Of a stretch of 64,000 nucleotides of DNA, positions 20,772 to 36,307 are shown one piece after another. The notes under the pieces were generated by a model. That model was not told where the DNA came from. It did no database searches and saw nothing but the letters and a program-made list of their open reading frames with translations. The DNA comes from Balanoglossus misakiensis (lineage: Eukaryota; Animalia; Hemichordata). Position 1 is the stretch's first letter; every line of letters begins with the position of its first letter. The position numbers and the translations under genes are program-made. The DNA lies in NCBI GenBank assembly GCA_040954595.2, contig CM082598.2, positions 124,001 through 188,000 of the forward strand. Reading direction: 5' to 3'.

Positions 20772-23700
20772 TTACTTGCGAGCAATTTCATAGTTTTCAA
20801 CAAACCAATCCACTGTCTCCTTGATGGCTGTAACAAACAAACAAATAAACAAAAACAAAAATAAAATTATGGTTTATATCTGGTTGAGTGATTACTTTTT
20901 ATGGGGTTCACACGTATGCATTTGAAACGCTTCTGAAACGTCTCAGGTCACATTCTGACATAAATTATTATGTGTGAACGGTTTAAGTGGTTCTGGGACA
21001 TTTTAGATTTGAGGTTTTGCTGGCCAGACCTAAGCAGGTGTAAAGGTTTATCATCTCTCCGCAACCCATCGTCTATATCTATCTAAATATGAATGAATGA
21101 ATGAATGAATGAATGAATGAATGAACAACACTGTAGTATAAGGTACTGTACTTACCATGCTTGATTGGAGTAAAGTGAAAATCTGGCAGATATTTCCTCA
21201 ACTTCCCATTATTTGCAGTTTTCTTGAATTGTCCATCAGACTTGCTGGTGTCATACTATTTCTTATGTTAAGGAATACAACATTATAAACTGGCAATCTG
21301 CACACATATCCAAACAATATGTTGGGCTTTAGGGCATGGGTCATGTAAACTGTCAGCGTAAGAATTGTTCAGATGTTAAATTTTCATGTCATGATAAGTA
21401 AAAGGATACAACAACTTCCCCTTTGAATTCATAGGCTTCAACCACCATTTCTGCGGCTTCCTTGATGGACACCTCATCCTCTTCTCCAACAGACAAGATG
21501 ATTGGAGAGATCTCATCGTATTCTCGCAGGACCCACAAAAACAATTTGGCTAAATCTAGTGAATAGATGAACTGACGACGAGGTGATCCTGTGCCCCAGA
21601 TAGTAAATGGTTTGTTCTCCTCTGCAAGAAATTATTGATGAAATGTGATCAGTGGACACAACATGAGGGAAAATTAAAGAGAAACATTCCATAGATTTTG
21701 TTAAACGACAGTATTCTGTTTATAAATTGACTTCATTCTGCTTGTCCTGTATGTCAGCGTAGCCAGCAGGTGTACCAAGCAAATTTATCATCCAGTGTTC
21801 AGTAACAACAATGCTGAATGTGCACATATTTCATCATGAATGACGATTAAACAAGAAACTGCAGTGCATGCTACAAATCTGACAGATCAGGCAAGCTACA
21901 GCTCTGACACCACAGGTATGCTGTATCAGATATGCACCATATATTAACTCATTTATGGTGCATCAATTATATAGGGGTGATATTCATACTTACTCTGGGC
22001 ACAGTAGACTTTGTTGATCAGGCCAGGAATAACATGTCCATCCTGCAAATTGAAATTGTCATAAGGGCCAAAGACATTAGTTGGAATGACCGAGGTGAAT
22101 TTACAGTTGTGTTGTATGTTGTATCCCCTGTAAAACAAAATAGACAATGCAGAGATTAGCAAGAATTCAAAACTTTAACCCTTTCACTACCATAGTTTGG
22201 TCCAAATCCTTGTTTTCAATGGTAGAGTTGGATCTCTATAGATGGAAGTGGGGTGAAAGGATTAACCAAAGTCATTCCAAGTAAACACACTTTAATGACA
22301 GGAAAGCATATACGAAGAAATAGGAGTAAGATCATCCACCTGTTGTCAAGGAAATTAGAGATTAAAAAATGTGGGTTTTTTTCAGGAGTGATCATGCAGT
22401 AGTTGGGTGACACGATAATCAGATGAAGGACTGAACCCAATCTGGTCGGGATTTAATTTAAGCCACTCACTTGTTCATGACATCAATCATTCGCTTCGCA
22501 TACGAATATCCAAAATTGGAATCATGGGGTGGACCATTGTGGATCATTGTTTCATCAATTGGATATGTGGTCTTGTCTGGGAATATACACGTGGAGAGAC
22601 AAGAGACGCACTTCTGAACATTATACTTGTAGCAGCTGTACAGAATGTTGTCATTAATTTTCATGTTTCTGCGCTGTTGGATGAATAATACAAAGAGAAA
22701 AATGTACATTTGTAACATTGAAAATAGTATCATCTATATATAACTGGCGACTGCTTCAAAGTGTGTGTGAGATTCACATCAATGTTGGTCAATTTTAATA
22801 CTGATGGCAGTGACCTTAGCCATCTAGAGTGTATTGAGTTTGAAGTTTAACCCTTTCACCACCATGGTTCAGTCCAAACCCATTGTTTTCTATGGTAAGG
22901 TTGGACCTATATAGAGGGAACTGGGGGTGAAAGGGTTAAACGTAGTGTCCTATGGTAAAGGTGATTGCAATGATATTCAGTGATGAGAGGCTTCAGGATT
23001 TGACAGCATACTTTTTTAGATAGAAATAAATGTACAATAGAGAAACCTAATGGTGCAAAAACAAAGTGCCAGTGATGGATGGGTTTTAGAATCTCTCCAC
23101 AAATTCTAAGTTTACTTAGTATAAGAAGAAGATTCAAGTATTTTATGGTTTAAAAATAGGCAAAAAGTGGCAGCTATTGGGGCTTTAATACAAAATGCAA
23201 TTCACCAAAGGTGTGATCAGAGAACCACGGCTCCAATAAACCGATTCAAAACAAGCAATACTAATACCCATAACAGCTGACGACCATTGACAAAGAAAAG
23301 ATCATGTCAGGCCATCATTTTGGTTTCATCTCATATACAGCTGGCATAGATATAGATCTCATGCATGCAAGTTTATTCCTTCATCAATCATTAAAATTCA
23401 ACAGAATGTCGCACACATACCGGAAGGATTAATTTCAATTAATATCACCTCTGGTCAGTGTGAATATGGCAACTCCCATAAACTATACATTTTCATAAAG
23501 CTGAGTATTTGAAAATTATTTTGATGTAGTTCATGAGCTACTTATATGTGACCATTGGTGTAAAAAAATAACAGATAACACTGAGGACTTTGGGGCTAAT
23601 TATCTGTTTTTTGTTTAAAAAATAGTAAAATTTCATATTTTCACTACAAAAACATATACTCCAAGAACGCAGCGAAAATGTATTTATGTTTGGGATTATA

Positions 23701-24857
23701 TTTCTAAACATATGGCACCAATATATATGACAGAAACATTTCAATACATGCTGAAATAACCTCAACTCAGAAGTAGACTATCGGTATTTAAAATGTTATT
23801 GTGGCGACTTTCAGGATAATTTTTGCCATATTACAAATTTGTTAAATTAATTTTTGTTAGAATTCATTTGTCAACCATAATAATGGTTGTTCCACACATA
23901 CAGGCTTTGTTGACAAGCAAAGTACTAGCTATAATAGAACAAGGAATTGTGTTTTTTCTCAGAACAAAAAATACTAAAAATAAAGCCAAAAGTTACAGCT
24001 GATGTCCCTGTAAGTTAATACAAATGAGTGGTTGGTATTAACTCTACAACAGACTGAACCTGCCTACTGCCGGGGATTAGCTGATGAACTAGGGATTTAC
24101 CAATCTGGTTGAAGTACTAGTATTTGGGAGATTACAAGGTACTTCAAGGATGGAGGGATGAATTTACAATAACAACATCCAGATCATTACTGTAGATGAT
24201 ACAAGTCACTATCAGAATATACTCACAAAAAAATCGAGGTTATATGCCAGATTACGGAAGAGTCCTCCAACCATGGCAGCTAAATGAATAACATGGGTAG
24301 GTTTGTGTTTTTCAAACAGAGCAAGGGTGTCGTCTTCTGATCTGTTACAAAATGAAATGAAATACAGTTGTTATAGGCATGCCTGAATGATCAAACCAGC
24401 TGTATTAAGGACTGCATCCACATCCACATACAAATCAACCCAATTTACAATAAATTTGTTGCTGAGACATGAAACGTGTTTTATTCAGCCAAACTATGAA
24501 CATTGGTATATCACACCTGTTGCGTATATGGACAATTTTGCAAATGTCTAAAGAGCACAACTGATCAACAGGGTATTTAGAAATCTCTAAATTTACAAAA
24601 ATTGCTCTCATAACGCAGGAATAACCTAGCAAATCTGGGCCAAGCCCAAATGACATGACTTAACATGGCTTCACTTTGCATAACAATATTTACATAACTT
24701 GGCCAATCAACTACTGGGGTACTCACTCCAAATTGGCATCTTTTGAAGACACAAACACCCATTTCTCATCAGGCTTTGCTTCCTCTAAGGCAACTTTCTC
24801 AATAGCTTTGCCAACCAATCCTGTGCCCCCAGTAACTAGAATCACTTTAGCTGTCAT
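20772..24857 (-). CDS. GFUS: GDP-L-fucose synthase (GDP-4-keto-6-deoxy-D-mannose 3,5-epimerase-4-reductase), canonical copy 1, 316 aa
   Basis: Exons 24727-24857, 24227-24341, 22471-22673, 21994-22127, 21410-21621, 21156-21255, 20772-20827 (951 nt). [54 protein letters not shown]; all catalytic residues intact. Confidence 0.96.
21090..21125. repeat. (GAAT)n microsatellite
   Basis: Visible tetranucleotide run. Confidence 0.9.
21256..21409 (-). other. U12-type (minor spliceosome) GT-AG intron in GFUS copy 1
   Basis: 5' site GTATCCTTT; branch site TTCCTTAAC (21267-21275) about 9 nt before the AG; no polypyrimidine tract. Confidence 0.92.
22175..22265. mobile_element. TTAA/CCCTTTCAC MITE (diverged copy)
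   Basis: ttaaccctttcact...gtgaaaggattaa. Confidence 0.75.
22847..22939. mobile_element. TTAA/CCCTTTCAC MITE
   Basis: ttaaccctttcacc...ggtgaaagggttaa, in reverse orientation relative to the 3699 copy. Confidence 0.8.
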
Positions 24858-36200: not shown

Positions 36201-36307
36201 ACAAAAATCCATTTCTCATCAGACTTGCCAGCTTCCGAGACGACTTTTTCAAGTGCTTTACCAACCAATCCAGTCCCACCAGTTACCAAGATTATTTTTG
36301 ATGCCAT
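33216..36307 (-). CDS. GFUS paralog copy 3; intact 314-aa ORF with catalytic Tyr->Phe (putative reductase-deficient enzyme)
   Basis: Exons 36177-36307, 35481-35595, 35031-35233, 34578-34705, 34075-34286, 33642-33741, 33216-33271 (945 nt). LSTCIFP and EGHVLAGL retained; NFGYSYAK->NFGFAYAK. Confidence 0.92.
33319..33411. mobile_element. TTAA/CCCTTTCAC MITE
   Basis: ttaaccctttcacc...agtgaaagggttaa. Confidence 0.8.
33742..34074 (-). other. U12-type intron in GFUS copy 3
   Basis: GTATCCTTT donor; degenerate branch CCCCTTACA. Confidence 0.8.

Follow-up and report, generated by a model that had tools for sequence, protein, structure and literature searches.

Animal glycans are generally considered to be assembled from few kinds of sugar donor, and GDP-L-fucose synthase (GFUS) is regarded as yielding a single product. 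Examined here is a tandem array of three GFUS genes, referred to as copies 1 to 3, on the minus strand of a 64-kb stretch of the genome of the acorn worm Balanoglossus misakiensis (contig CM082598.2, positions 124,001 to 188,000; hereafter, the window). The second and third copies each lack one catalytic half of the enzyme. Human GFUS (FX/TSTA3; PDB 4B8Z, 4BKP, 4E5Y) belongs to the same family, and copy 1 carries all of its catalytic residues. According to the available excerpts of a study of engineered human variants (PMC12362431), replacement of either member of the epimerase pair (C116A or H186A) leaves the enzyme inactive (<0.01%), and C116S, with a kcat ~1000-fold slower and about 0.1-0.2% activity, yields ~70% of a D-altro product epimerised at C3 only. 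In the same excerpts, the reductase variant Y143F retains 1-3% activity with a 100-fold lower kcat and GDP-L-fucose as sole product, its epimerisation being little affected. Additionally, F77, W208, R215 and K282 are tied to slow GDP release, K282 coordinates the GDP beta-phosphate, and the two active sites of the dimer are independent.

Outside animals, GDP-L-fucose synthase (GFS) homologs of Campylobacter jejuni without the Cys/His pair are described as pure C4 reductases that are able to act on the mannose substrate without its prior epimerisation (PMC7949155, in part). DdahC (Thr/His at the pair) and MlghC/Cj1428 (Tyr/Arg) resemble copy 2 in combining the GFS fold and an intact Ser/Tyr/Lys triad with an altered pair; their products span the D-manno, D-altro, D-ido, L-galacto, L-gluco and L-gulo series, the L-gluco products being reached by a separate epimerase acting with such a reductase (PMC7949155, PMC10680097, both in part). 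These enzymes are bacterial, act on heptoses and have as epimerase partners the unrelated cupins DdahB and MlghB, whereas both candidate halves in the window stem from comparatively recent duplication of a single animal GFUS. Reduction of the GMD product at C4 without epimerisation, as predicted here for copy 2, is reported for bacterial RMD (product GDP-D-rhamnose) and GTS (GDP-6-deoxy-D-talose) in the accessible portion of PMC3718619. Among animals, RML-1 to RML-5 of Caenorhabditis elegans make an unusual 6-deoxysugar, dTDP-L-rhamnose, with a separate epimerase and reductase and a degenerate partner from the short-chain dehydrogenase/reductase (SDR) superfamily; as far as the excerpts of PMC9741107 extend, this pathway is dTDP-glucose based and RmlB/C/D-like rather than GFUS-derived.

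The exons of the three copies (Table 1) were assembled from the window by coordinate, and open reading frames, intron borders and protein lengths were read off. Residue numbering follows human GFUS and was fixed by exon-wise alignment, which was gap-free across the matched stretches of exons 3, 4 and 6. Each gene comprises seven exons of 131, 115, 203, 134, 212, 100 and 56 bases, with the exception of exon 4 of copy 3 (128 bases); all 18 introns have GT-AG borders, and internal stops are absent from all three frames. A translated search of the window yielded no fourth GFUS copy. The proteins are 68% (copies 1 and 2), 77% (copies 1 and 3) and 64% (copies 2 and 3) identical, and all belong to the GFUS/Fcl family of extended SDRs: the GGTGLVG Rossmann motif is present in each, exon 3 of each matches PF01370 (that of copy 2 below the curated cut-off), and the best PDB matches of the exons are to human GFUS.

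The residues that define a bifunctional GDP-L-fucose synthase, namely the Ser114/Tyr143/Lys147 triad and the Cys116/His186 pair, are complete in copy 1 only. Copy 2 has C116M and H186G and retains the triad; copy 3 has Y143F and retains the pair, making it a natural version of the human Y143F mutant. The human variants (Y143F, C116S/A and H186A/K) are engineered, whereas copies 2 and 3 arose naturally and are paralogs under selection, and the combination in copy 2 of a double pair loss with an altered sugar pocket is not among the variants in the available part of PMC12362431. Further changes in copy 2 are V73P, N140D, H68N, D120A, G190A, L191T and I117C. The last of these places a Cys one position past the lost Cys116, and it may be the original Cys after a one-codon register shift. 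A role for Cys117 as substitute base is not favoured: this position is 98% Ile in canonical proteins, the counterpart of copy 2 in Ptychodera flava (P0001, below) lacks a Cys at this point, and copy 2 is without His186. Activity of copy 2 or copy 3 alone as a GDP-mannose 3,5-epimerase (forming L-galactose) was rejected, as this requires Tyr plus a Cys/acid pair. In copy 3, exon 4 is shortened by 6 bases at its 5' end (window 34700-34710), which deletes two residues, including the conserved Tyr157, at the end of the YxxxK helix; its P. flava counterpart (P0109) is without the deletion.

A preliminary description of this locus had reported three same-strand, seven-exon paralogs with intact frames of 316, 316 and 314 residues, a complete active site in copy 1, loss of Cys and His in copy 2 and a Tyr-to-Phe change in copy 3, all of which agree with the frames, introns and alignment obtained here. 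Its statement that the NADP-binding GGTGLVG and the GDP-binding Lys, Trp, Arg and Asp positions survive throughout holds (GGTGLVG, K194, W208, R215 and D277 are kept in all three copies), and all of L76, F77, K194, W208, R215, D277 and K282 are kept in copies 1 and 3. What it overlooked is K282M on the GDP side of copy 2, where F77Y and the nearby Q279R are also found; P0001 retains K282.

Counterparts of the altered copies, which the preliminary description had suggested looking for in related genomes, are present in P. flava. This species encodes six GFUS-like proteins versus three in the window. The P. flava counterparts of copies 1, 2 and 3 have the accessions XP_070543571.1, XP_070543875.1 and XP_070543582.1. 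P0002 is canonical and 92% identical to copy 1, which in turn is 88% identical to P0105 of Glandiceps talaboti and 86% identical to P0003 of Saccoglossus kowalevskii. P0001, 68% identical to copy 2, has C116S and H186N with Ser/Tyr/Lys kept, and P0109, 71% identical to copy 3, has Y143F with Cys/His kept. The remaining three (P0037, P0040 and P0106; XP_070543615.1, XP_070543602.1 and XP_070543591.1) carry C116S, Y143F, N140E, R148L and P170L, have full-length frames, are mutually 79-84% identical, and represent a fourth paralog class that is absent from the window. These could be either pseudoenzymes or enzymes whose site has been rewired, with Glu140 serving as the acid in place of Tyr.

In the main tree, of 38 rows, the nine proteins of the two genomes form one clade apart from Glandiceps and Saccoglossus (support 96/85), in which copy 1 pairs with P0002 (92/81), copy 2 with P0001 (97/93) and copy 3 with P0109 (96/82); the window copies are nested within hemichordate GFUS (100/99). 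In a second tree, of 24 rows with 20 pocket columns taken out, the pairing of copy 3 with P0109 stays at 93/85. The orthology of copy 3 and P0109 thus appears good, and that of copy 2 and P0001 probable; were the latter two not orthologs, they would have converged on the same pocket. The array is read here as an old set of tandem GDP-L-fucose synthase duplicates. Nesting in hemichordate GFUS, together with an identity to copy 1 of 68-69%, indicates that copy 2 is not descended from the bacterial reductase families, although the trees were without sequences of RMD and GTS, which we take to be SDR families separate from GFUS; an RMD- or GTS-like activity of copy 2 would therefore be convergent.

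The changes in copy 2 are concentrated at the sugar site. A set of 294 canonical proteins defines 112 positions with conservation of at least 95%; of these, none is altered in copy 1, 7 are altered in copy 3 and 24 in copy 2. Those of copy 2 affect 9 of 14 sugar/catalytic, 3 of 9 GDP, 0 of 17 NADP-side and 12 of 72 other positions, such that sugar/catalytic positions are altered more often than the rest (9/14 versus 15/98; Fisher p = 2e-4, indicative). In P0001, 5 of 14 sugar/catalytic (p = 3e-3, likewise indicative) and 1 of 17 NADP-side positions are altered. Moreover, 8 of the 10 conserved sites altered in P0001 are also altered in copy 2 (p = 5e-5), and the two proteins share the identical new residues F77Y, D120A, N140D and L191T, plus G190A. 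Copy 3 and P0109 have 2 altered sites in common (p = 0.19). A kept Ser/Tyr/Lys triad and NADP(H) site with an absent Cys/His pair, the residue pattern of non-epimerising GDP-4-keto-sugar C4 reductases (RMD, GTS, DdahC/MlghC type), describes both copy 2 and P0001.

A three-sequence codon model (314 codons, synonymous sites partly saturated) gave branch ratios of nonsynonymous to synonymous substitution (dN/dS) of 0.048 for copy 1, 0.32 for copy 2 and 0.066 for copy 3. A ratio fixed at 1 was rejected for each (p = 1e-4, 0.037 and 4e-12, respectively), as was a single shared ratio (p = 6e-5). In simulations at the divergence fitted to a neutrally evolving copy 2 (0.173), an open frame was kept in 0.165% of 20000 runs, and the probability of an intact frame together with intact splice sites was ~4e-5, the splice-site term being approximate and indels ignored. 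The simulation excludes long neutral decay of copy 2; it does not reach recent silencing. No pseudogene hallmarks (frame or splice lesions, dN/dS near 1) were found in copies 2 and 3, and the neutral evolution that the preliminary description had named as fatal to its proposal is at odds with their dN/dS values below 1. Assembly error and private polymorphism were rejected: the altered codons differ by several bases, lie in more than one exon and have parallels in P. flava. On this evidence, the residue changes are conserved in a second genome and under purifying selection.

Comparable half-enzymes were sought in an alignment of 314 rows, consisting of the 3 window proteins and 311 database proteins, isoforms and cluster members included (database matches: 104 of 104, the best 120 of 5917 and the best 120 of 2231). 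The five catalytic sites read Ser/Cys/Tyr/Lys/His in 295 rows, and one row lacks the last site. Y143F alone occurs in 10 rows (copy 3, P0109 and 8 from Branchiostoma), C116S with Y143F in 3, H186N alone in 3 (Penaeus indicus and P. chinensis), and loss of both Cys and His in 2 (copy 2 and P0001). All 8 members of the Branchiostoma cluster (P0015, P0216-P0222) carry Y143F; this amphioxus gene is 93-94% identical between species versus 93-95% for the canonical gene, is represented by XP_019622668.1, and has I131L and F280L in common with copy 3. Amphioxus also has a third paralog, P0265, in which none of the five sites departs from the canonical state. A single deuterostome-wide Y143F orthology group was rejected by the approximately unbiased test (p-AU 0.018), and the amphioxus Y143F gene is, on the strength of that test, separate in origin. 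In a Penaeus cluster, 3 of 9 members (P0188, P0224 and P0227) have H186N and G190A and 6 are canonical. The shrimp H186N copies are ~95% identical to canonical shrimp GFUS, and their H186N, G190A and L191Q parallel H186N, G190A and L191T of P0001. It should be noted that the two P. chinensis H186N entries are short (243-250 residues). A complementary partner type for amphioxus Y143F or shrimp H186N was not present among the best 120 of 5917 or the best 120 of 2231 matches.

A wider survey used the best 150 representatives of 50%-identity clusters; 131 of 169 aligned stretches cover the five sites, and 38 were dropped. A total of 119 of these 131 are canonical (2 with Thr for Ser), 5 lack Cys and His and keep Ser/Tyr/Lys, 2 have Tyr-to-Phe with Cys/His kept, and 5 show other states. 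Three of the 5 proteins without Cys and His form their own clade (support 99), in which one has a full RfbH-like pyridoxal phosphate (PLP) enzyme as fusion partner and another contains part of such an enzyme, which suggests that the fused proteins are working pathway reductases. Among the representatives, P0383, P0428, P0456 and P0389 have GFUS-like domains without Cys and mostly also without His; an RfbH/DegT-like PLP enzyme is joined to the domain in P0428 and P0389, and a piece of one is present in P0383. This arrangement suggests a route to a GDP-3,6-dideoxyhexose without epimerisation.

The reading favoured here, tentatively and at less than even probability, is that the two altered paralogs became specialised along separate lines, copy 2 being a stand-alone reductase with a new product and copy 3 an epimerase with slow reduction, while copy 1 likely keeps the normal job of a GDP-L-fucose synthase. 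With Cys116 and His186 replaced, copy 2 is predicted to be unable to epimerise by the known route. It is likely a non-epimerising, NADPH-dependent 4-keto reductase with a non-fucose GDP-6-deoxyhexose as predicted product, which was the second option in the preliminary description and is the one preferred here. Copy 2 would bind the GMDS product GDP-4-keto-6-deoxy-D-mannose in its altered pocket (V73, F77Y, N140D, G190A, L191T) and reduce C4 via Ser114/Tyr143/Lys147, giving GDP-D-rhamnose if the GFUS hydride face is kept, or GDP-6-deoxy-D-talose if it is flipped. The L-galacto, D-altro and D-manno forms have the same C4 configuration, such that, if it uses the hydride face of GFUS, copy 2 would convert the GMDS product to GDP-D-rhamnose and a pre-epimerised ketone to GDP-L-fucose; by the same stereochemical reasoning, L-quinovose would require the other hydride face or a flipped ring. 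By analogy, the Campylobacter reductases show that both C4 outcomes should be reachable once the Cys/His pair is altered (PMC7949155, PMC10680097, as excerpted). Copy 3, if it behaves like human Y143F, is likely an epimerase with weak reduction: it would epimerise C3 and C5, reduce ~100-fold more slowly, and accumulate or hold GDP-4-keto-6-deoxy-L-galactose while leaking little GDP-L-fucose. The preliminary description had regarded normal GDP-L-fucose formation by each copy alone as refuting its proposal, and for copy 3 the analogy goes part of the way to that outcome, human Y143F alone yielding GDP-L-fucose. A stand-alone role for copy 2 is favoured because its pocket has been rebuilt in a way shared with P0001 that is needless for the usual intermediate, and because His-less and Tyr-less copies occur separately elsewhere.

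Several observations weigh against two separately specialised enzymes. Human C116A and H186A are dead, so loss of the pair alone does not make a reductase (PMC12362431, in part). Copy 2 is fast-evolving (68% identity to P0001 versus 92% between copy 1 and P0002), is without K282, and passes the dN/dS test only marginally. Without the pocket columns, its pairing with P0001 falls to 77/87, the nine-protein clade loses its resolution, and the data do not reject a grouping of copies 1 to 3 with one another (p-AU 0.13). The site classes were set after the tables had been seen, partly from the residues in PMC12362431 and partly from motif position, and the p-values attached to them are indicative for that reason. 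Retention of Cys/His in copy 3 and P0109 is no more than general conservation predicts, and the lack of partners in amphioxus and shrimp, which concerns the matches listed only, is weak evidence. The three C116S and Y143F copies kept by P. flava suggest retention without need for catalysis. Finally, none of the papers listed by the literature searches on this point dealt with a non-fucose 6-deoxyhexose in acorn worms.

The second-best reading, which we regard as unlikely, is a relay: copy 3 would act on GDP-4-keto-6-deoxy-D-mannose, epimerising it at C3 and C5, and let go of the resulting L-4-keto sugar, which copy 2 would then reduce, forming GDP-6-deoxy-L-glucose (L-quinovose) if the pocket flips the ring and otherwise GDP-L-fucose by a second route. 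Both types arose in one array and are kept in both genomes of the clade, human Y143F epimerises normally (PMC12362431, in part), and the Campylobacter pairs reach L-gluco products with just such a division of labor. The preliminary description took a split or relayed pathway as its leading model, a rank that it does not hold here: copy 1 is complete and nothing is partitioned, the default product would again be fucose and thus redundant, and the three P. flava C116S and Y143F copies match neither half. Further, copy 3 keeps F77, W208, R215 and K282, the residues of slow GDP release in the human enzyme, making it poorly suited to hand over an intermediate, and amphioxus Y143F and shrimp H186N arose separately, with no partner among the matches listed. 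Of the sub- or neofunctionalisation that it deduced from reciprocal losses, what stands is that the substitutions are genuine, of long standing and subject to selection; strict subfunctionalisation was rejected, as copy 1 retains everything. That the enzyme was split between two copies is therefore not the first choice, and the biochemical roles assigned here to the altered copies are predictions.

Rather improbable is that copies 2 and 3 are non-catalytic or barely catalytic binders or regulators that buffer or adjust the supply of GDP-fucose, for instance in cells producing mucus, by binding NADPH and GDP-fucose or by pairing with copy 1 or GMDS. Full-length frames in the three P. flava copies without Cys116 and Tyr143 are in line with such a role, as are the low activities of human Y143F, C116S and H186A given above, the kept NADP-side, most GDP-side and dimer-helix residues, and the degenerate scaffold partner RML-5 of the nematode rhamnose pathway (PMC9741107, in part). 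However, copy 2 and P0001 keep Ser114/Tyr143/Lys147 and alter the same pocket sites to the same residues, neither of which a binder of the old ligand needs, and the independence of the sites in the human dimer means that a dead subunit is not obviously regulatory (PMC12362431, in part). Least probable of all are birth-and-death duplicates under relaxed selection whose active sites drift without a distinct role: copies 2 and 3 do diverge ~4x faster than copy 1 between the genomes (68% and 71% versus 92%), copy number does differ (3 here, 6 in P. flava), and private losses (K282M and H68N in copy 2, the two-residue deletion in copy 3) do occur, but dN/dS stands at 0.32 and 0.066 in copies 2 and 3, respectively, all frames and splice sites are intact, and Y143F recurs independently at a position with Tyr in 303 of the 313 other rows, all the exceptions having Phe.

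To the extent of openly searchable full-text literature, mostly judged by title or abstract and with subscription journals outside coverage, no description of animal GFUS paralogs of this kind or of acorn-worm deoxysugars was found; the available main text of PMC4729200 contains no mention of fucos-, mucus or glycosyl. There is about an even chance that the acorn-worm lineage built a new pathway from GFUS duplicates, leading to a GDP-6-deoxyhexose new to animals (GDP-D-rhamnose by copy 2 alone, or GDP-L-quinovose by copies 3 and 2), with similar half-enzymes in amphioxus and penaeids and with uncharted sugars hidden behind 'GFUS-like' annotations. The altered paralogs are annotated merely as GDP-L-fucose synthase or synthase-like. 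Selected paralogs that each lack one catalytic half, in three animal lineages, point to unrecorded sugar donors or to a regulatory function of this fold. In addition, the copies offer natural material for probing the ordering of GFUS catalysis, epimerisation ahead of reduction.

Table 1. Coordinates of the GFUS array, its diagnostic codons and neighboring genes in the window.
Feature	Position	Strand	Remarks
Copy 1, canonical GFUS	20772-24857	-	316 aa; S114/C116/Y143/K147/H186 all intact
Copy 1 exons	24727-24857, 24227-24341, 22471-22673, 21994-22127, 21410-21621, 21156-21255, 20772-20827	-	
Copy 2, GFUS paralog	27690-31488	-	316 aa; epimerase pair gone, sugar pocket altered
Copy 2 exons	31358-31488, 30831-30945, 30274-30476, 29652-29785, 28683-28894, 28001-28100, 27690-27745	-	
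Copy 2, S114	30396-30398	-	Retained
Copy 2, codon at human C116	30390-30392	-	Met; next codon (I117) Cys
Copy 2, Tyr143	30309-30311	-	Retained
Copy 2, K147	30297-30299	-	Retained
Copy 2, codon at human H186	29692-29694	-	Gly
Copy 2, codon at human K282	28065-28067	-	Met; change not shared by P0001
Copy 3, GFUS paralog	33216-36307	-	314 aa; Y143F, C116/H186 intact
Copy 3 exons	36177-36307, 35481-35595, 35031-35233, 34578-34705, 34075-34286, 33642-33741, 33216-33271	-	
Copy 3, Cys116	35147-35149	-	Retained
Copy 3, codon at human Y143	35066-35068	-	Phe
Copy 3, His186	34618-34620	-	Retained
Leucine-rich-repeat gene	about 2100-3500	+	Pfam
PIH1D1-like candidate gene	about 5600-7200	-	Tested exon without Pfam match; presumed likeness
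Tubby family gene	about 12100-16200	+	Pfam
C2 + CUE gene	about 38700-41300	-	Pfam; presumably Tollip-like
Sulfotransferase gene	about 49300-51200	-	Pfam; presumably WSCD-like
bHLH gene, single exon	56671-57126	-	Pfam; presumably achaete-scute-like

Within the array, copies 1 and 2 are closer to each other at silent sites in exons 6-7 and the adjoining intron ends (20772-21275 versus 27690-28122), with a silent-site difference of 0.17-0.18 versus 0.35-0.56 elsewhere (17-23 codons only); later gene conversion between the two copies at these exons is possible. A dispersed repeat of ~60-95 bases, 83-91% identical and in both orientations, lies in GFUS introns and nearby (22171-22265, 22843-22940, 33318-33414 and 37954-38012), and a short tandem repeat is located at 19354-19638. 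The genes that neighbor the array (Table 1) are usable as synteny anchors. An open frame of 1396 codons on the minus strand (43092-47279), rich in Gln, Ser, Thr and Pro and without a Pfam match, probably forms one long exon in the gene for a disordered protein.

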